NCBI GenBank assembly: GCA_963674755.2
Contig: CAXXVS010000002.1
Span: forward strand, 768,001-832,000
DNA length: 64,000 nt
Reading direction: 5' to 3'
Source of the DNA: Desulfobacterales bacterium
Lineage (GTDB): Bacteria; Desulfobacterota; Desulfobacteria; Desulfobacterales; UBA5852
Positions within the stretch are counted from its first letter, which is position 1; each line of letters opens with the position of its first letter. Shown here in pieces: positions 33,547 to 43,487 of the stretch. The notes below the pieces were generated by a model. It searched no databases. It had not been told where the DNA came from and worked only from the letters and a program-made list of their open reading frames with translations. A program made the position numbers and the translations under genes.

Positions 33547-33911
33547 GGGTTTCCTTTGCGAAGCAATCAGGGGTATGAGATTATCCTCGGCTCGCCCGCC
33601 GCCCCCTGGGGCAGCCGGGACGCTTCGTGGATGATGCCGCCGGCAGAGTGCTCATTTCATCTACGGTACCCATGGTAACCCCTTGGGCTTGGCTTGGCAA
33701 CGGTTATGACGCGATCGGTGGAACTCTTCCTAAAGTTTGAGGTGCAGGCAACCGAATAGATTTTCTGCCCCCAGATGATGCTTTGGTGCTCCCAGCGAGG
33801 ACGACCGTCGCGCGCCCTGTATTTGGAAGGCAGGCATTGCTTGACTAAGCTACGGTTTTGGGATCAAATAATGCTCATCTCAGTCCGGTATTGATGACTA
33901 AGGAGCCTGGC

Positions 33912-35783
33912 ATGGATATCAATGTTTGTTGTCCCGAAAAAGTGGTCTCGGCCGAAGAGGCCATTGCTAAAATCAAGCGGGGCAGCCGTGTGTTTGTCGG
34001 TACCGGATGCGGTGAACCCCAGCATCTCATTCGGAGTATGGTAAAAAACCCCCAATTACAGGACATCATGCTCTATCAGATGCTGTCTTACACCTTTGCG
34101 GACTACGTGGATGATCCAACCTTCGCGAATCGGTTCAATCTCAAGCTGTTTTTTATCAGCAAAATCATGCGCAAGGCCGCTTTCGAAGGCAAGATCGATT
34201 ATATCCCGGCCTATTTATCCAAGATTCCCCGTCTGTTTGCCAGCCATCGCATCGGTCTGGATGTCGCCTTGGTGCAGGTCAGCCCCCCCGACCATTTCGG
34301 TTATTGCAGTCTGGGCGTTTCCATCGATATTACCCGCTCGGCCATGGAACATGCCCATCTCGTCATTGCCCAAGTCAACCCTTGCATGCCGCGCACCTGG
34401 GGTGACAGTTTCGTGCATGTTGACGAGATCGACTATCTGGTTCCGAAGGACGAGCCTCTGGTCGAAACGATGGTCGATGTCGGGGATAACGAGATATCCA
34501 AGCGTATTGGCCATTTCGTCTCGGAGTTGGTAGAGGACGGCGCCACACTGCAAATCGGGTTCGGCTATTTGCCCAATGCTATTCTGCGCTATCTGGATCA
34601 TAAGCATGATCTCGGCATTCACACTCAGCTCATTACCGACGGTCTCCTGCCGCTTTTTAATAAAGGGGTCATCACCAATAAGAAGAAGACGCTTTTGCCT
34701 GGGAGAGTGGTTGCCTCCCTTTGCATGGGGTCGGAACAACTTTATCAGTTCGTGGACAACAACCCGGCCTTTTATTTCCGATCCTCGGAGTTCGTGAACG
34801 ATCCCACTGTTATTGCCCGTAATGATAACCTCGTTTCCATCAGTAGTGCCCTCGAAGTGGATCTCACCGGACAGGTCTGCTCGGATTCCATGGGCCACCT
34901 CTTTTACAGCGGTATCGGTGATCAGGTTGATTTCTTACGTGGTAGCGCCATGTCCAAAGGAGGGTTCTCCATCATTGCAATGCCCTCCACGGCTTGCAAC
35001 GGCAATGTATCGCGTATCGTTCCCTATCTCAGCGAAGGTTCCGGGGTGGCCACGACACGTGCCGATGTGAATTTCGTTGTTACTGAATACGGTATTGCCG
35101 AACTTCAGGGAAAAAGTATTTTTCAGCGTGTAATGGAACTCACCCAGATTGCCCACCCCAAGTTTCGTGATCAGCTAATCCAGACGGCCAAGGGCCGACA
35201 CTATATTTTCGCCGATCAATTGACGCCTACCCAAGAAGACCTTTTGTTTCTGGAAGGTTACAAATCGACGTTGAAGATTAAAAATGGAAAAACGTTGCAT
35301 TTTCGTCCGTTGCTGCCATCAGATGAATTTGCCTATCGCAATTTCTTCTACTCACTTCAGGAAGAGACTATTTATTACCGTTTCTTTTACCAAATGAAGT
35401 TGTTTTCCCATGAAGTCATCCAGAAGCAATGGGCTAGTGTCGACTACCGAAAAAATATGTCGATGATCGGATTGGTTCAAAGGGGTGGTCATCAGGAGAT
35501 TGTCGCGATCGGCACCTATGCCCAGGAAGACGCTACTAGCGCCGAGGTGGCTTTTGTGGTGCGCGAGGATTTTCAAGGTATGGGAATCGCGTCTTATTTG
35601 CTCAAAATATTGGAGGGGATTGCTAAGGAAAATGACTATGCGCGATTTACTGCAACGGTTTTGCAGGATAACCCGGGCATGTTGTCCGTATTCCGAAAAC
35701 GTTACCCGAAGGCCGAATTGAAAGCCACCGGAGGCAACGAGATCGCTGTCAAAATGGATTTCACACCCAGCGAGGAACCATAA
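33912..35783 (+). CDS. Acetyl-CoA hydrolase/CoA-transferase (4-hydroxybutyrate CoA-transferase-like) fused to a C-terminal GNAT domain
   Basis: DVALVQVSPPD..GYCSLG, DGATLQIG.G, LEVDLTGQV, SGIGDQVDF, VVTEYGIA; C-terminal AEVAFVVREDFQGMGIAS GNAT motif; AAGGAG RBS. Confidence 0.9.
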   Translation: MDINVCCPEKVVSAEEAIAKIKRGSRVFVGTGCGEPQHLIRSMVKNPQLQDIMLYQMLSYTFADYVDDPTFANRFNLKLFFISKIMRKAAFEGKIDYIPAYLSKIPRLFASHRIGLDVALVQVSPPDHFGYCSLGVSIDITRSAMEHAHLVIAQVNPCMPRTWGDSFVHVDEIDYLVPKDEPLVETMVDVGDNEISKRIGHFVSELVEDGATLQIGFGYLPNAILRYLDHKHDLGIHTQLITDGLLPLFNKGVITNKKKTLLPGRVVASLCMGSEQLYQFVDNNPAFYFRSSEFVNDPTVIARNDNLVSISSALEVDLTGQVCSDSMGHLFYSGIGDQVDFLRGSAMSKGGFSIIAMPSTACNGNVSRIVPYLSEGSGVATTRADVNFVVTEYGIAELQGKSIFQRVMELTQIAHPKFRDQLIQTAKGRHYIFADQLTPTQEDLLFLEGYKSTLKIKNGKTLHFRPLLPSDEFAYRNFFYSLQEETIYYRFFYQMKLFSHEVIQKQWASVDYRKNMSMIGLVQRGGHQEIVAIGTYAQEDATSAEVAFVVREDFQGMGIASYLLKILEGIAKENDYARFTATVLQDNPGMLSVFRKRYPKAELKATGGNEIAVKMDFTPSEEP

Positions 35784-36644: not shown

Positions 36645-37250
36645 ATGGCATTCGTCAATCTAAAGAAAAAAGAAGTTCAGGTTAAAATCGTCTATTATGG
36701 TCCCGGTAGAGGCGGAAAAACGACAAATCTTGAGTATATCTATGCAAAGTTCAATGAACGAATTCAGACTGAGATGGTGACCGTCAAGACACATGGTGAC
36801 CGAACGTTGTTCTTTGATTTTTTGCCGATCGATATCGGTAAAATTAATGGATATACCGCTAAGATGCAACTCTATACCGTACCGGGACAGGTCAAATACA
36901 ACGCAACGCGGCGGTTGGTTTTAAGAGGCGTCGATGGAATAGTGTTTGTGGCTGACTCAATGGCGGTGAGAAGAGAAAAGAATATTCTTTCGCTCAAGAA
37001 TCTTCATGAAAACTTAAAAAATTATAAAAAAAGTATTTTTTCCATCCCCTTGGTTTTTCAATACAACAAGGTCGATTTGGCCGAACAGGGGATACCGTTG
37101 CTGCCGTTTGCGACCATGGAAAAAGATCTCAACAGTCAACTCAAACGCCCTGCTTTCGAAGCCAGCGCGGTAACGGGATCAAATGTTGTTCCTACCCTGA
37201 AAAAGATTATTACAATGACCATGGCCTCGATAAAGGACGAATTAAAATAG
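36645..37250 (+). CDS. mglA: MglA-type small Ras-like GTPase
   Basis: KIVYYGPGRGGKTTNL (G1), T..DRTLFFDF (intrinsic Arg), TVPGQ (G3), NKVD (G4), EASA (G5). Confidence 0.95.
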   Translation: MAFVNLKKKEVQVKIVYYGPGRGGKTTNLEYIYAKFNERIQTEMVTVKTHGDRTLFFDFLPIDIGKINGYTAKMQLYTVPGQVKYNATRRLVLRGVDGIVFVADSMAVRREKNILSLKNLHENLKNYKKSIFSIPLVFQYNKVDLAEQGIPLLPFATMEKDLNSQLKRPAFEASAVTGSNVVPTLKKIITMTMASIKDELK

Positions 37251-37260
37251 GAGGATACTG

Positions 37261-37950
37261 TTGAAGAGCGATGCCAAACAAAGCAAAGTAGATAGCGATT
37301 TGGCGGATCGACTTGATACCCTTTTTGATGAAACCGATTCAGATGAGAGTTCCGCCCACAAAAAAGGCCAATCGAATGATCCTCTGGATGAACTCAAGTC
37401 GCTGGTCATGTCGATTGAATGGGAAATTACCGATGAGGTGATGGAGCGCTTCCTATCCCAAATTGATTTCCTTAAAACGCGTTTTGAAGAAGACCGCATT
37501 CTGGTCATGTTCCTTCAGTTGTTGGGCTCGCTTGGGTTGTATATCAAGACGAATAAGGGCAAGGCGCATCCCAACGCTTTCAAACTATTGAATTCCGTGT
37601 ATTCAGGTTTTGAAGATGCCACCTCGCCGGGGAAATTGTCCCCTTCGGAAAAGAAGAAACTGCTTTATGTCGAGCTGAACAAATACAAAGAACTAAAGGA
37701 ACAGATCGAATCAACGCGGAGCCCTGAAAACGAACCGCCGCGAATACCAGAGACGGTTGCCGGACGAGGCAGTGGACAAAAAGCAGCTGCCAATGAAACC
37801 CGTCAAATGGCCAACGTTAGCGAATCAGCACATAGTGGCCTGCTATCCCAAGCACATTTCGATGAAGTTGTAGATGCGATGAAAGCATTGATTTTGAAAG
37901 AACTATCCGGAATACGCGAAGATATAGCACGTTTGGCTAAGTCCAAATAA
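37261..37950 (+). CDS. Hypothetical all-helical protein in the mgl operon
   Basis: AGGAGG then TTG start; acidic N-terminus, helical core (LKSLVMSIEWEITDE...AHPNAFKLL), low-complexity linker, C-terminal amphipathic helix. Confidence 0.8.
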   Translation: MKSDAKQSKVDSDLADRLDTLFDETDSDESSAHKKGQSNDPLDELKSLVMSIEWEITDEVMERFLSQIDFLKTRFEEDRILVMFLQLLGSLGLYIKTNKGKAHPNAFKLLNSVYSGFEDATSPGKLSPSEKKKLLYVELNKYKELKEQIESTRSPENEPPRIPETVAGRGSGQKAAANETRQMANVSESAHSGLLSQAHFDEVVDAMKALILKELSGIREDIARLAKSK

Positions 37951-38058: not shown

Positions 38059-38529
38059 ATGGATTTTGCGTCCGGTGATATTTCTGTGCTCGTTTTCAAA
38101 CCAGTCGTAAGGGACGATGTAGGGAATTTTTCCCTCGATGGCCACATGTTGAGCGTCCTCATGGCGTTGGATGGAGAAAAAACGCTTGGCCAAATTGCCC
38201 AGCAGGCCAACCTAAACATGGCGACGATCAGGGAGGCTGTCAGAAAACTTTTCGAGCTTAAACTGGTCGAAATCATAAAACAAGATATTCAGTTTCTCGA
38301 CCAGGATTTTATATCGTTTTTAATTTCCGAAATGTCGCTCGCCATCGGCCCCCTCGGAGAGGTGATTGTCGAGGATGGTATCGAGGATCTGGGGTATAGC
38401 AAAACCACCTTTCCAACGAACCGCGCGGCCGAGTTAATCAACATGCTGGCGCGAGAAATCCAAAGGGATGAAAAGAGAACCGAATTCAAGCAGAGCATGG
38501 TAAACAAAATTAGAGAAAAAGGCTACTGA
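38059..38529 (+). CDS. Hypothetical protein: winged-helix-like N-terminal domain plus helical IGP-motif domain
   Basis: VLMALDGEKTLGQIAQQANL....REAVRKLFELKLVE wHTH pattern; AIGPLGEVIVED C-terminal module; GGAGG RBS. Confidence 0.78.
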   Translation: MDFASGDISVLVFKPVVRDDVGNFSLDGHMLSVLMALDGEKTLGQIAQQANLNMATIREAVRKLFELKLVEIIKQDIQFLDQDFISFLISEMSLAIGPLGEVIVEDGIEDLGYSKTTFPTNRAAELINMLAREIQRDEKRTEFKQSMVNKIREKGY

Positions 38530-38673: not shown

Positions 38674-40029
38674 ATGATCGTTATTTGTGAAGAGTGCGGA
38701 AAAAAATATAAAATCGACCCCGCGAAAATTAAAGGCGAACAAGCACGATTCAAATGCAAAGCGTGCTCGCATATTATTACCGTAAAAAAGCAAGAACCAG
38801 TTGAACAGAGCGTACCCGAACTGGAACCTGTATTCGAATCCCAACCGGTGCTTGAAGATGTCGACAAAAGTAGTGGTTATCAGGCCGAAGAGACAACGCC
38901 GGACCAAGCCGCGGAGCCGTCAGCACCTTCAACCGCTAAGCGGGTCGCGCGTCGCAAAAAAAAGACGGGCATGGGACTCACCAGCAAGGTCATTCTGTTG
39001 ATGCTTCTGGTCAGCTTGGTGCCGGGCGCGATTTATTTTATCATTTCCTTCAAACAGACCAATGATCGCATCGTGCAAGACACCACGCGTTTTGGTACCC
39101 AAACCACGAATGCCTTGGCCAATGAAGTCAGCGAATGGGTCGATAAGAATGTTCGCGTCCTTAATACTGTGGCTCAGCTGCCAGGTATTCAATCAATGAA
39201 TCGATTCGAGCAAGAGATTCTTCTCAAGGCCGTGCAGAAGGAATACCCCTGGATGTATCTTGTTTTTACGACGGATATCAATGGAATGAATATCGCCCGT
39301 AATGACGACAAGGACCTTAGAGACTATTCCGACCGGCAATATGTTCAAGACATTACCTCCGGCAAGGCACTTGCCTGGCAGAATTTGATCGGGAAAACAT
39401 CTAAACAGCCAGCTTTGGTTATCGCTGTTCCCATTCAAAAAAACGGCCAGACGATCGGTGTAATGGCCGCGGCAATGACACGTGACACCATCAGCAAAAG
39501 AATTGCGAACTGGCGTGAAGGTAAAACCGGATATGCGTTTTTGGTCGATCAAGACGGCAAGGCGTTGGCTCATCCTAAAAAGGCATTTGTCGAGCAGCAG
39601 AAAGATTTAAGCCAGGATCCTCTGGTTAAGGCTGCGCAAGCCCGAAAGAGCGGCCTGATAGAGTTTACCGATGCCGACGGACAGGCCGAAATAGGCTTTG
39701 CCCAGAAAACCCCCCTGGGATGGACACTTGCCATTCAACAATCGAAGGCAGAGGCTTTTGCTCTTCTTAAAGAAGCACAAATATTTGCGCTTATTTTGAT
39801 GGGGGCCACTTTCATCATCGTTGTGGCGATCGCCTATATTGCGAGCCGTGCTATAGTAATGCCCATCCGCAAGTTGACGGATGCCGCGAACCGCATCAGT
39901 GTCGGCGAGTTAGGGGTTGAAATAAAAACGACGTCGAAGGATGAAATCGGTGATTTGGCGGAAGCTATTACGCGCATGCAGGATAGTATCCGCTTGTCCA
40001 TTGAAAGGCTTAGACGTCGTCGAAGGTGA
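38674..40029 (+). CDS. Zinc-ribbon - TM - dCache - TM - HAMP membrane receptor lacking kinase/MCP/cyclase output
   Basis: CEEC...CKAC zinc ribbon; TM1 VILLMLLVSLVPGAIYFIISF; Cache motifs YSDRQYV and GYAFLVDQDG.ALAHP; TM2; HAMP PIRKLTDAANRISVGEL...DEIGDLAEAITRM then stop. Confidence 0.85.
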   Translation: MIVICEECGKKYKIDPAKIKGEQARFKCKACSHIITVKKQEPVEQSVPELEPVFESQPVLEDVDKSSGYQAEETTPDQAAEPSAPSTAKRVARRKKKTGMGLTSKVILLMLLVSLVPGAIYFIISFKQTNDRIVQDTTRFGTQTTNALANEVSEWVDKNVRVLNTVAQLPGIQSMNRFEQEILLKAVQKEYPWMYLVFTTDINGMNIARNDDKDLRDYSDRQYVQDITSGKALAWQNLIGKTSKQPALVIAVPIQKNGQTIGVMAAAMTRDTISKRIANWREGKTGYAFLVDQDGKALAHPKKAFVEQQKDLSQDPLVKAAQARKSGLIEFTDADGQAEIGFAQKTPLGWTLAIQQSKAEAFALLKEAQIFALILMGATFIIVVAIAYIASRAIVMPIRKLTDAANRISVGELGVEIKTTSKDEIGDLAEAITRMQDSIRLSIERLRRRRR

Positions 40030-40126: not shown

Positions 40127-41128
40127 ATGATTGTAATACCTAAAGAGAACCCTGTTATCGCTAACTTAAACAGTTACTATGTTCAGGTTGATCGGCTTAT
40201 CGAGCACTTTCAAGGCGAAGTCGGGTGCGGTTGCTTGCATTTTCACTCACTATCGTCGGAAGGGATTTTGTTTTTTGATAAAGACGAAGTCCTCAACGGA
40301 CTATTTTTACAGAAGAAAGGAACAATATCAGGTAAGCCAGCTATTGACGCCCTAATCAAATCGTCTGCAGAAACCAATTATGCTTTAAACGTCTATATTC
40401 TACGGTCAGAAGATATCTACTTCTGGTCGACGATTCCGGAGGCTAAGAGAATTTATCAGGACCTTACCACGGAATTTACCGATCTAGAAGGTTTGATAAA
40501 AAAAATGACCTCCGAAGGGCTAACCGGGTTTATTGAAGTGGTTATTAAGGAAAACAATGGGGGCGGGCTCGTTTTTTTTAACAATGGCGGTATTTCCGGT
40601 GGCTCCTATTCATGGGGCAGAGGTGATAGTACCAGGGGAAAAGCTGACCATGACAGACTAATCCAATTAACCAAGGACTATGGCGGTGCTTTTCATGTGA
40701 GCCGTATATCGATGACCGGAAACGATAAGCCTCTTGAAGAAGACGTTGATCTGGAACCAGAAGAACTTAGTGAAAAGCCTTCCAGCAGGATTGTAACCGC
40801 AATGGGAGAAATGATTGCCATATTTGAACGCACTGTCAAATCTATGAAAAATGTGAATTCTGATTTTGCAACTATGTTAAATCGCAAATTTGTTGAGAAA
40901 GCAGATCGTTATCCTTTTCTAGATCCTTTTGCCGCCGAGTTCAAATATGCAAACGAGGAAATTGTTTTTGATGGTGTTACAACCGACGAGGAATTGACGA
41001 GAGGCATCCTGGAGTCTATTGCCGAACTATCCGTTGAGTTAAACGTCTCGCAACAATTCAAAAATAACCTCATCACATGGATGAAGAAATATAAGGAAGA
41101 GGTCCAAACCTACGGCATTAGCTTTTAA
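40127..41128 (+). CDS. Hypothetical protein with two tandem DUF4388/PATAN-like (DUF2226-like) domains
   Basis: Repeat 1 GCLHF...EGILFFDKDEVLNG; repeat 2 LTGFIEV...GLVFFNNGGISGG; C-terminal FLDPFAAEF helical domain. Confidence 0.7.
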   Translation: MIVIPKENPVIANLNSYYVQVDRLIEHFQGEVGCGCLHFHSLSSEGILFFDKDEVLNGLFLQKKGTISGKPAIDALIKSSAETNYALNVYILRSEDIYFWSTIPEAKRIYQDLTTEFTDLEGLIKKMTSEGLTGFIEVVIKENNGGGLVFFNNGGISGGSYSWGRGDSTRGKADHDRLIQLTKDYGGAFHVSRISMTGNDKPLEEDVDLEPEELSEKPSSRIVTAMGEMIAIFERTVKSMKNVNSDFATMLNRKFVEKADRYPFLDPFAAEFKYANEEIVFDGVTTDEELTRGILESIAELSVELNVSQQFKNNLITWMKKYKEEVQTYGISF

Positions 41129-41412: not shown

Positions 41413-42444
41413 ATGGACAAGACGGCATTTTCTAAAATAGATGCTTCCCTGAGAAGCTACGCGGAATTCGTAAGGAATTTACCGGTTGCCGTATATCGGA
41501 CCACACTTGAAGGCAGAATCGCATTTTGCAACGACCCCTTTGCACGTATTTTCGGTTTCGACTCGGTAAACGATGTCATCGGTTTTCCAGAAATTAAACT
41601 TTACCGCAACAAAAAGGACCGGGGAACTCTGGTGCAATCCGTCATGCAGCGCGGAATCATCAGCGAAATGCCAGTTGCTTTTACAAAACGCGACCACATG
41701 CCCATTTGGTGCGCCGTAACGACTAAAGCCACCATCGATGACGATGGTGAAGTGGCCTTTTTAGATGGACTTGTCAGAGATATTACTGGAGAAATTGAAG
41801 AAACGCAGCGTCATGATAACGGCATTGATCATATAAACGCGATCAATGTCCCGGCGTTCATTTTCGACGCACAAGGAATTGTTCTGGACGCGAATAAATC
41901 CGGAGCACAAATTCTTGGATGCCCTGCAAGCAATTTAAAAGGGAAATCCTTCGCTGATTATCTAACCAACGATGACCAACAGCTATTTTTCCTTTTTTTA
42001 GGTGATACAATCCGTATCGGCGGGGAAGAAATTATCCTTCAAATACCAGTCGATAGGAAAGAAAGGAAATATGTACGACTACATGCCGCTGTTGTAAAAT
42101 CGGATGGTGGCACGAGACAGATCAATTGCATCGTGAATGATGTTACCGAGCGTATAAAAACGATCCGCGAAAAGACTAACAGGGATAAATTTCAGGGCGT
42201 TCTCGAAATGGCTGGGGGTGTGGCCCATCGCATTAACCAGCCTTTGACCATCGTTAATAACATAATTAACGAAGCCTTCACAGGGCTTACGGCCGAAGAT
42301 CATCTTTATGATAGCCTTGTTAAAATGCGCACTCAAATACAGAAGCTGAATGAGATTACTAAAAAAGTCGGTAGTATAAAAAAGTATGAAGCGATCGATT
42401 ATGTCGCCGGGGTCAAAATTGTCGATATCGATAAGGCTTCTTAA
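41413..42444 (+). CDS. PAS-PAS-HisKA protein lacking the HATPase domain
   Basis: Two PAS domains (GRIAFCNDPFARIFGF; GIVLDANKSGAQILG, each ending in DIT/DVT); H-box MAGGVAHRINQPL; stops about 70 aa later with no N/G boxes. Confidence 0.82.
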   Translation: MDKTAFSKIDASLRSYAEFVRNLPVAVYRTTLEGRIAFCNDPFARIFGFDSVNDVIGFPEIKLYRNKKDRGTLVQSVMQRGIISEMPVAFTKRDHMPIWCAVTTKATIDDDGEVAFLDGLVRDITGEIEETQRHDNGIDHINAINVPAFIFDAQGIVLDANKSGAQILGCPASNLKGKSFADYLTNDDQQLFFLFLGDTIRIGGEEIILQIPVDRKERKYVRLHAAVVKSDGGTRQINCIVNDVTERIKTIREKTNRDKFQGVLEMAGGVAHRINQPLTIVNNIINEAFTGLTAEDHLYDSLVKMRTQIQKLNEITKKVGSIKKYEAIDYVAGVKIVDIDKAS

Positions 42445-42464
42445 AACAATTTAAGGTGAAATTA

Positions 42465-43487
42465 ATGATACGCAGTGTCCTTTTTGTAGATGACGACAGG
42501 GAAATGCTGCAGGCCCTGAAAGAGGGCCTGGAGAAGTATCGCGAAACTTTCAGTGTCGTATTGGCCGAGGACGGCACGGATGCGGTTGGCAAGCTTAAAA
42601 ACAACAAAATTTCGCTTGTCGTAACGGATCTAAAGATGCCGAACATGGACGGCTTTAGCCTGCTTGCCCACGTTATGGAAAAATATCCCGATATCCCTGT
42701 AATTATTATTACAGGGTACAGTACGTCAGAAATGAAAAGGCTGGCGCAAGAGGGAGGGGCCGTAGGCTATATCAGCAAGCCTTTTCTTATTGAAGACCTT
42801 GCCAAGCAAATTATGAAAACCTTACGGAAAGAGTCTGACGGTGGCACGTTGCACGGCGTATCCTCAGGCATGTTTCTGCAGTTGATGGAAATGGAAGAGC
42901 GAACCTGTACGATTCGCCTGACTGATCGCACAAGTCAAAAATCCGGCGTATTGTTTTTTCGCGATGGAACTCTTTTAGATGCACGGGCTGGTGACATGCA
43001 GGGTTTAGATGCCGCCTATGTTATTTTCAGCTGGGAAGAAGTGACCCTGTCCATACAGAATGAATGTCTGCAAAAGGATAATAAGATTAACTCCGACCTG
43101 CAACCGATCATCTTGGAAGCAATGCGGTTGAAGGATGAAGCCGAAGATGATGAGAATGAATTGGGCATAGATGAGACGATTGAAGAAATCGAGATTGTTG
43201 ACGCTGAGGAATCATTCGTTGACAAAGTAAAAGGGCTTTTAAACAAGAATGTTGGCGATCGCTGCGGGCTTGAAGATATTTACCAAGATAACAGTATGCA
43301 AAAAGTCGTCAATGCCGTTGCAGAACTGGGACCGATTTTCCAAATTGGTATGTTTAAAATTGGCTACCTTGATCATGGTGCCAATACCGACACCATCGTT
43401 TTGAACGGGAATCCGGCGACGACTATAAGCGTCAACCCGAAATGCCCTCGCGATAAAATTATTCAAGTGTTGAATGACGCCTTATAG
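42465..43487 (+). CDS. Response regulator: REC + DUF4388 (PATAN-like) + C-terminal domain
   Basis: VLFVDDD, LVVTDLKMP (phosphoacceptor Asp), ITG, ISKPF; G.L.GVS...FLQLMEMEERTC.....GVLFFRDG.L.DA DUF4388 pattern. Confidence 0.88.
   Translation: MIRSVLFVDDDREMLQALKEGLEKYRETFSVVLAEDGTDAVGKLKNNKISLVVTDLKMPNMDGFSLLAHVMEKYPDIPVIIITGYSTSEMKRLAQEGGAVGYISKPFLIEDLAKQIMKTLRKESDGGTLHGVSSGMFLQLMEMEERTCTIRLTDRTSQKSGVLFFRDGTLLDARAGDMQGLDAAYVIFSWEEVTLSIQNECLQKDNKINSDLQPIILEAMRLKDEAEDDENELGIDETIEEIEIVDAEESFVDKVKGLLNKNVGDRCGLEDIYQDNSMQKVVNAVAELGPIFQIGMFKIGYLDHGANTDTIVLNGNPATTISVNPKCPRDKIIQVLNDAL

Follow-up and report, generated by a model that had tools for sequence, protein, structure and literature searches.

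We describe a membrane receptor encoded in a 64,000-nucleotide window from a Desulfobacterales bacterium (contig CAXXVS010000002.1, positions 768,001 to 832,000; coordinates below are positions in this window, and loci labelled L are other stretches that were compared with it). The receptor, of 451 amino acids (aa), has no enzyme part and ends shortly after a HAMP domain, and its gene lies in one run with mglA, which encodes a small GTPase, and mglB, which encodes a roadblock-type GTPase-activating protein (GAP). As judged from profile and fold comparisons, the receptor and the 156-aa adaptor encoded just upstream of it are a bacterial counterpart of the archaeal pair Af1503/Af1502. Receptor and adaptor genes form a tightly inherited pair, and the fusions of the adaptor's STAC domain found elsewhere point to a pathway of PATAN proteins, MglA/MglB and PilB.

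A receptor that ends after its HAMP domain

The receptor gene is a single open frame, preceded directly by a ribosome-binding-like AAGGAG sequence and closing with ERLRRRRR and a TGA stop. It encodes, in order, a cytoplasmic zinc ribbon with cysteines C5, C8, C28 and C31 (CxxC-x19-CxxC), a linker, a first transmembrane (TM) segment starting near aa 106 by hydropathy, a periplasmic dCache sensor, a second TM segment starting near aa 370, and a HAMP domain (Pfam, aa 391-440, E 3e-13) with a short basic tail (Table 1). A Pfam scan found no domain after HAMP, no methyl-accepting chemotaxis protein (MCP), DHp or HATPase domain, and no GYF domain after the linker, which runs directly into the first TM segment. 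The MCP label, common on database entries of homologues, is ruled out by the absence of the MCP signalling domain after HAMP.

Truncation or frameshift of the gene can be ruled out as well, since homologues share its C-terminal stop. Among the best 120 of the 1884 homologues found in a search of proteins of 248-790 aa, 119 end 28-32 residues past the HAMP DE[IVLF]G motif, the remaining one being a C-terminal fragment. A separate search of longer proteins gave 30 matches, all at 37% identity or below and none annotated with the zinc-ribbon family. Likewise, when a profile of the HAMP and tail was run against 1.84 billion representatives, 28 of the best 150 matches were poly-HAMP proteins, and the other 122 all ended within 30 aa past the match. 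We conclude that this is a membrane sensor with no enzyme part, and that its architecture is conserved.

These results agree with much of a preliminary description of the receptor, made from the sequence, which had proposed the same order of parts from ribbon to stop (now recovered by Pfam, hydropathy and an AlphaFold model of the periplasmic part), had suggested checking that orthologues also end after HAMP, and had called the receptor non-enzymatic. Its remark that no kinase, MCP or GGDEF domain follows holds for the protein itself, but a response regulator and a PAS protein follow as separate genes.

The same description regarded the ribbon as the only cytoplasmic output, a phrase that is interpretation rather than observation and that conservation does not favour. 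For 51 divergent homologues, selected on the score of the whole protein, identity to the query was 0.86 in the HAMP domain and 0.87 in the tail, compared with 0.72 in the ribbon, 0.64 in the dCache domain and 0.16 in the linker. We measured tail conservation on this homologue-search set, since the set of 79 related loci used below (mostly Desulfobacterales or Desulfocapsaceae) had been picked by two HAMP/tail peptide patterns. With a sensor held between two TM segments and an end after HAMP without an effector domain, the protein has the layout of Af1503-like receptors; since it has a zinc ribbon in the cytosol besides HAMP, we class it as a variant of them. Ribbon-less relatives do have HAMP as their sole cytosolic part.

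The receptor tail and the adaptor match Af1503 and Af1502

Af1503-like receptors have been described as archaeal, HAMP-terminal proteins with no recognisable effector, often coupled to STAC genes such as Af1502 (PMC4834066, excerpt). When compared with solved structures, the HAMP-tail profile of the window receptor found Af1503 chains as its best relatives (E 4e-16, with other HAMPs at 1e-9 or worse), in an alignment that runs near to the ends of both proteins. The adaptor, modelled with a predicted local distance difference test (pLDDT) score of 86.8, comprises a winged helix (about aa 5-77) and a DUF8082 domain (about aa 80-156). A profile of this second domain against the PDB placed Af1502 (5A1Q) first, as the only match below E 0.1 (E 8e-4), and the adaptor model aligned over all 68 Af1502 residues (root-mean-square deviation 3.0), with a Foldseek TM-score of 0.69 on the target. 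An LGPx(x)A-type STAC motif is present, with its Gly-Pro invariant in 49 rows. Both matches, by sequence and by fold, are modest, yet they agree. Since the tail finds Af1503 and the adaptor domain finds Af1502, the two proteins appear to be counterparts of the archaeal pair, and DUF8082 is probably STAC.

In many other, ribbon-less lineages the adaptor has the form PATAN-winged helix-STAC. The best fold matches of the winged helix itself are protein-binding winged helices of GATOR1/SEA (Z 9.6-9.7). GATOR1 is a GAP for the roadblock-bearing Rag GTPases. The likeness (window 38059-38290) is a curious parallel to the present setting and may be generic fold similarity.

Receptor and STAC genes are inherited together

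Of 151 genomes of the order, 62 have the receptor tail and 61 have STAC; 59 of the 64 genomes with either have both, and the other 87 have neither. A STAC gene lies at most 2.5 kb upstream of 76/104 receptor matches, and within 7 kb of 8 more. The receptor tracks STAC far better than it tracks MglB, which occurs in 94/151 genomes and in 60/62 of those with a receptor. Although this last count supports the Mgl link assumed in the preliminary description, as does the conserved mglB-mglA operon, the tightest gene partner is the winged-helix-STAC gene upstream rather than mglB, which the description had favoured as the direct partner.

All 28 STAC-positive genomes among 201 of the phylum hold the receptor tail. 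With the 156-aa protein rather than the receptor as query, 22 of 28 loci from other genomes contained an adjacent HAMP-terminal receptor, and in one further locus the receptor ran over the edge and was confirmed by a later search. Only 2 of these 22 receptors carry a ribbon, and ribbon-less receptors also occur in mglA operons (L149-L152, L154), which argues further against the ribbon as sole output. MglA was detected in 119/201 genomes of the phylum and in 24 of the 28 with both receptor and STAC. The tail and STAC profiles share rows with some of the genomes searched, making the receptor and STAC counts of the order and the phylum tail counts partly circular; the 156-aa-query search of the 201 genomes and its neighbour check are not circular. 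As related genomes are not independent, all coupling counts are tallies, not tests. A distance-correlation test across 29 loci, in which tail and ribbon both tracked STAC best, is given little weight because adjacency and kinship confound it.

The window genome itself has three STAC genes, and directly downstream of each lies a gene for a HAMP-terminal receptor; only the window pair adjoins mglAB. The second pair (L080:6058-9393; C3 ~1696057-1699392) consists of a winged-helix-STAC gene and a ribbon-sensor-HAMP receptor, followed by two phosphonate-type periplasmic binding-protein genes in a run with no ATP-binding cassette (ABC) permease; this pair may sense through binding proteins. The third (L081:5058-7141; C1 ~760057-762140) holds a winged-helix-STAC gene, a 217-aa protein and a ribbon-less HAMP-terminal receptor; the 217-aa protein looks secreted and resembles the receptor's own sensor region. 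A Motiliproteus locus (L061:1344-3322) has two convergent ribbon-less HAMP-terminal receptors together with a binding-protein gene.

Pairs lying away from mglAB raise the question of whether the receptor instead holds the winged-helix-STAC protein at the membrane until ligand releases it as a transcription factor, with the MglA operon as one of several settings. The two further pairs of this genome, one beside binding-protein genes, would fit this idea, as would weak matches of the winged helix to MarR/TrmB/IclR-type families. However, apart from structural residues and a single Arg/Lys position the recognition helix shows poor conservation, the net charge of the winged helix ranges from -5 to +4 over 32 rows, the best fold matches are the protein-binding domains named above, and the fusion partner in many lineages, PATAN, is a protein-interaction domain; we therefore regard release of a transcription factor as unlikely.

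The binding-protein genes also bear on a possible role of the receptor as a regulatory subunit acting in trans on transport or other signalling, through solute-binding proteins, a transporter or the ATPase-less PAS protein. Af1503-like receptors are often found near transport genes and STAC has been proposed to regulate solute transport (PMC4834066, excerpt); in CbrA, STAC docks on the SLC5 transporter domain (PMC13022988, excerpt), and binding-protein genes flank several homologues. The window operon contains no transport genes, and binding-protein genes lie beside a paralogue of the receptor and some homologues. Among the conserved neighbours in the 79 loci, which are MglA/MglB, PATAN, roadblock and PilB genes, there is no transporter gene. 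We regard such a regulatory role in trans as unlikely.

The zinc ribbon and the MglB-MglA module

The ribbon matches those of Myxococcus GltJ (7ZOK, E 1e-9) and Caulobacter ZitP (2NB9, E 9e-6), confirming a kinship to GltJ that had been suggested before; ribbon and GltJ ribbon share the same cysteine positions. From this kinship, the preliminary description had derived a non-enzymatic G-protein-coupled receptor whose ligand signal is passed straight to the MglB GAP. On such a route, ligand binding would free the ribbon to bind MglB or the 115-aa roadblock protein and so tune GAP activity on MglA. In GltJ, the ribbon raises MglB GAP efficiency fourfold (PMC11135422, excerpt). mglB is found in 40/52 loci with enough upstream DNA, besides its presence in nearly all receptor genomes, and ribbon genes stay beside mglAB in some genomes that lack the receptor. 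Yet the GltJ ribbon binds the C-terminal helix of MglB, and both binding and GAP stimulation are lost without it (PMC11135422, excerpt), whereas the alignment of the window MglB to the 160-aa Myxococcus chain stops at residue 132, and with its 4 remaining residues the protein ends at about position 136 of the ~160-aa Myxococcus protein, and 45/46 MglBs in these loci end 19-26 aa past the last conserved motif. Because the helix is missing, the GltJ precedent cannot apply as it stands. In addition, a linker with so little identity and variable length is a poor conduit for a signal from the TM segment, most receptors elsewhere in the phylum are ribbon-less, also in mglA operons, the ribbon-MglB partial correlation is -0.11, and the same ribbon family binds PopZ in ZitP, implying that its partners vary. 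Direct control of MglB by the ribbon thus seems quite unlikely.

The ribbon, present in the window lineage and absent from most relatives elsewhere in the phylum, seems nevertheless to be tied to the MglB-MglA-229aa module. Of 22 mglB loci in genomes that gave no receptor match, 5 have a ribbon gene directly after the 229-aa gene, either alone, fused to FHA (three times) or fused to another domain; 5 of these 22 loci end at contig edges. The ribbon genes lie at L184:2120-2608, L185:5626-6099, L188:3425-3973, L161:9720-9920 and L162:8699-9208. A roadblock identity for the ribbon-fused domain in L162 was dropped, the profile comparison not being significant (probability 0.8).

A different ribbon partner is suggested by the 229-aa protein itself. 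Its N-terminal helix carries R-L-D/E-x-L-F in 32/46 rows under a strict pattern, with near variants in most others, and ends in a D/E-x-L-F pattern like that of the MglB C-terminal helix, which in Myxococcus has Asp154, Leu156 and Phe157 (PMC6785124, excerpt). From this resemblance we infer that the 229-aa helix may stand in for the missing MglB helix. No family for the 229-aa protein came from the ESM Atlas. Longer homologues (L085-L088, L162) contain its core in duplicate.

An exchangeable periplasmic sensor

Modelled with AlphaFold (pLDDT 91.5), the periplasmic part has the dCache fold, matching sensor domains of this type with TM-scores of about 0.7-0.8. Among 75 ribbon-bearing rows, the sensor is dCache-sized in 33, smaller and Cache-like in 37 and no more than a short loop in 5, and it is thus exchangeable among relatives. 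Such free exchange, together with the fact that both solved ribbon relatives are localisation proteins, could mean that the receptor chiefly anchors the MglA module, constitutively, at the membrane or the pole in the manner of ZitP or GltJ, and that its periplasmic domain is secondary. We consider this very unlikely, as conservation of the dCache pocket residues is good within the subfamily, the highly conserved HAMP domain is intact, and genomes retain between two and four copies whose sensors differ, as expected of inputs.

To the question of the ligand, the dCache_1AA amino-acid motif (Y121/R126/W128 and Y144/D173 in PctA numbering; PMC8915833, excerpt) gave a partial answer. A profile alignment to PctA, whose register is uncertain at this low identity, puts Tyr218, Arg221 and Tyr223 in the half of the motif that binds the carboxyl group, and Leu and Ala at Y144 and D173, so that the amino-binding half is missing. 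An amino-acid ligand was dropped because half of the motif is absent; the fold search does rank amino-acid receptors first, but only as the commonest dCache structures, at ~20% identity. Our best guess from these residues is that the ligand may be a carboxylate rather than an amino acid.

Several loci (L039, L041, L057, L029, L030) have two receptors with different sensors, in tandem or nearby, and in L029 and L030 the second comes after an ABC-type binding-protein gene. In two ribbon-less operons of one family (L107:68-577, L100:2778-3287), a multiheme cytochrome c gene, called by a Pfam scan for L107 only, directly follows the receptor, hinting at redox sensing.

A model for receptor output through the adaptor

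Combining these results, we chart a model of how the receptor may act. A small ligand, probably a carboxylate, would bind the periplasmic dCache domain, and the resulting change would pass through the second TM segment to the HAMP bundle and its conserved tail, whose surface would offer the STAC domain of the upstream adaptor a docking site that can be switched. The adaptor would then relay the signal to the roadblock/MglB/MglA switch and the PilB-type ATPase, with the probable outcome of setting where or when a pilus-type motor works. The ribbon would be a lineage-specific second handle that links the receptor with the MglB-MglA-229aa module, and the partner that it grips would most plausibly be the acidic helix in the 229-aa protein, not MglB. 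The route from adaptor to PilB is suggested because the adaptor is fused to PATAN elsewhere, PATAN (DUF4388) binds PilB1 in Synechocystis (bioRxiv 10.1101/2021.06.11.447907, excerpt), and PATAN genes have already been noted near group 1 mglA (PMC4316618, excerpt). In many other lineages PATAN and adaptor form one protein, whereas in the window operon the PATAN proteins are separate genes. For the model as a whole, from ligand to PilB motor with the ribbon as an added anchor, we consider the chances to be about even.

Prediction of a complex between a HAMP-tail dimer and STAC, using alignments that we built, weakly supports the central contact: the score was 0.54, against 0.11 for the best control, with a run-to-run contact agreement of at least 92% and a partner pLDDT of at least 84. 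The mark applied to this score is reached by 116/157 solved complexes and by 2/215 mismatches; those reaching it at 0.60 or below comprise only 18 solved complexes and both mismatches. Among the PDB matches of the adaptor and HAMP-tail profiles there was no solved STAC-HAMP complex.

A number of results weigh against the model. A complex score in this band is more often wrong than right unless the prior is good, and the prediction returned no interface. The Foldseek E-value of the STAC match is 0.89, and its Z of 6.8 lies within the range of common helical bundles, making the match modest. In CbrA, STAC docks on a transporter domain and not on HAMP (PMC13022988, excerpt). Gene adjacency can explain co-inheritance without binding. 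No STAC gene lies within 7 kb of 20/104 receptor matches, some of which are near contig ends, and the Motiliproteus locus has no STAC match in 10 kb. The distance-correlation test gave a partial r of 0.50 for ribbon and STAC, above the 0.39 for tail and STAC, and of -0.25 for ribbon and 229-aa protein, which does not speak for the proposed ribbon partner; ribbon-less operons also carry a 229-aa homologue. As for the downstream steps, 34/94 MglB-positive genomes are without the receptor, 4/28 receptor-plus-STAC genomes gave no MglA match with the query used, meaning that the MglA link is not obligate, and pilB is present in 32/52 loci with enough flank.

A bolder version, which we regard as doubtful, would make STAC the long-sought effector of Af1503-type receptors, reading HAMP conformation directly. 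The receptor-STAC pairs of Desulfobacterota would then be enzyme-free inputs with exchangeable sensors that switch a Ras-like GTPase and a pilus motor, and the 229-aa protein would supply in trans the helix that MglB lacks, gated by the ribbon. If this were true, it would describe a bacterial receptor-adaptor-G-protein pathway without kinase or second messenger.

Relation to known systems

The window pair resembles Af1503/Af1502 of Archaeoglobus fulgidus in that an extracellular sensor sits between two TM segments, HAMP comes last among the domains, the HAMP tail is homologous and a STAC gene lies adjacent. Unlike Af1503, the window receptor is bacterial, with an N-terminal zinc ribbon and a dCache sensor; unlike Af1502, its STAC domain is fused to a winged helix (and elsewhere to PATAN) and encoded upstream of the receptor; and its neighbours are MglA, MglB, PATAN and PilB genes rather than an MgtE-type transporter. 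Af1503 gave the standard HAMP structures, yet it has been described as without a recognisable effector, and what STAC domains do is likewise described as unclear. The model, if true, would explain how enzyme-less HAMP receptors signal and how a periplasmic ligand could reach a bacterial small GTPase without phosphorylation. A direct binding test is feasible with two small soluble fragments. In a literature search, no paper connected MglA operons with STAC or with Af1503-like receptors; the original STAC paper (PubMed 26321252) was outside that search and may describe bacterial STAC fusions or a binding test.

With GltJ (PMC11135422, excerpt) and Caulobacter ZitP, the receptor shares an N-terminal ribbon, a flexible linker and a membrane anchor, in an MglA/MglB context. 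A GltJ-type switch combines such a ribbon with a linker and GYF; of its elements the window has the GltJ/ZitP-family ribbon but neither the GYF domain nor the ribbon-bound MglB helix, and a Cache-HAMP receptor body stands in place of the motility-machine parts.

Actinobacterial conservons, for which sensor-to-G-protein signalling has already been described (PMC13343842, PMC4316618, excerpts), likewise place a HAMP membrane sensor, a roadblock GAP, a small accessory protein and a Ras-like GTPase (CvnA-D) in one operon, and a roadblock GAP and GTPase do accompany the sensor here. However, the sensor CvnA has the DHp and ATPase domains of a histidine kinase, both absent from the window sensor. 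Conservon GTPases are group 2, whereas the window MglA is group 1 by its TVPGQ G3 motif and by its closest solved relatives, the MglA proteins of Thermus and Myxococcus; and the accessory protein is a winged-helix-STAC protein with no DUF742 match.

Finally, the PATAN regulators of PilB1 in Synechocystis also bring PATAN domains and a PilB-type ATPase into one system, although their input is a chemosensory kinase, in place of which the window has an enzyme-less receptor and an MglA switch, and PATAN-PilB contact is here our inference.

Operon setting and further observations

All ten genes of the run lie on the same strand, from mglB to the gene for the TPR-PilB protein (Table 1). In the related loci, counted where enough flank is present, the 156-aa gene occurs in 63/67, the receiver-DUF4388 and roadblock genes each in 53/56 and mglA in 41/52, and the double-PAS protein is conserved in 38 loci; no ATPase domain was found in the window copy of this protein with kinase models. 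Two homologues of the 333-aa protein match DUF2226 and DUF4388. In Desulfocapsaceae the operon is split, with mglB-mglA-229aa located elsewhere in 4/5 genomes checked.

Table 1. Features of the receptor and its operon in the 64,000-nucleotide window
Feature	Position	Strand	Remark
MglB roadblock GAP, 134 aa	36185..36589	+	without the Myxococcus C-terminal helix
MglA small GTPase	36645..37250	+	Thermus/Myxococcus (group 1) type, TVPGQ G3 motif
229-aa protein after mglA	37261..37950	+	no known family; candidate ribbon ligand
156-aa adaptor	38059..38529	+	winged helix and DUF8082/STAC four-helix domain
Af1503-like HAMP-terminal receptor, 451 aa	38674..40029	+	zinc ribbon-linker-TM1-dCache_1-TM2-HAMP-short basic tail
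N-terminal cytoplasmic zinc ribbon, aa 1-36	38674..38781	+	GltJ/ZitP (MJ0042) type; Pfam Zn_ribbon_4, E 2e-10
Periplasmic dCache_1 sensor, aa 133-354	39070..39735	+	Pfam, E 2e-23
HAMP and tail, aa 391-451	39844..40026	+	most conserved part; Pfam HAMP aa 391-440; proposed STAC docking site
333-aa protein	40127..41128	+	no Pfam match of its own; PATAN-like via homologues
Double-PAS protein	41413..42444	+	kinase models match only to the dimerisation region
Receiver-DUF4388 (PATAN) protein	42456..43487	+	Pfam
Second, divergent roadblock protein, 115 aa	43548..43895	+	
TPR-like region, MshEN and PilB/GspE-type ATPase, 793 aa	44032..46413	+	candidate end effector

A promoter scan gave 15 sites versus 17.8 in shuffles, no excess, and terminator-like sites numbered 19 versus 12.1 in shuffles, none of them convincing between genes on the + strand. 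Short contigs of one RNA library match parts of the receptor gene, but such contigs cannot show transcription, strand or co-transcription.

Just upstream of mglB, an acetyl-CoA hydrolase/transferase-GNAT fusion (window 33858-35783) is found in this position in 21 loci, which may fit a carboxylate-related signal or reflect plain synteny. The genome has two more mglA copies without an adjacent mglB match (L082:4996-6806 and L083:5771-10239), of which one precedes a DUF4388-like protein and the other lies near a receiver-bearing PilB/GspE ATPase. The same type of ribbon is also fused to a ParA/MinD-type ATPase in this genome (L084:14950-15912; C2 2054949-2055911), as well as in L178 and L179; the fusion is followed by a short HAMP protein, making up another ribbon-bearing localisation module.

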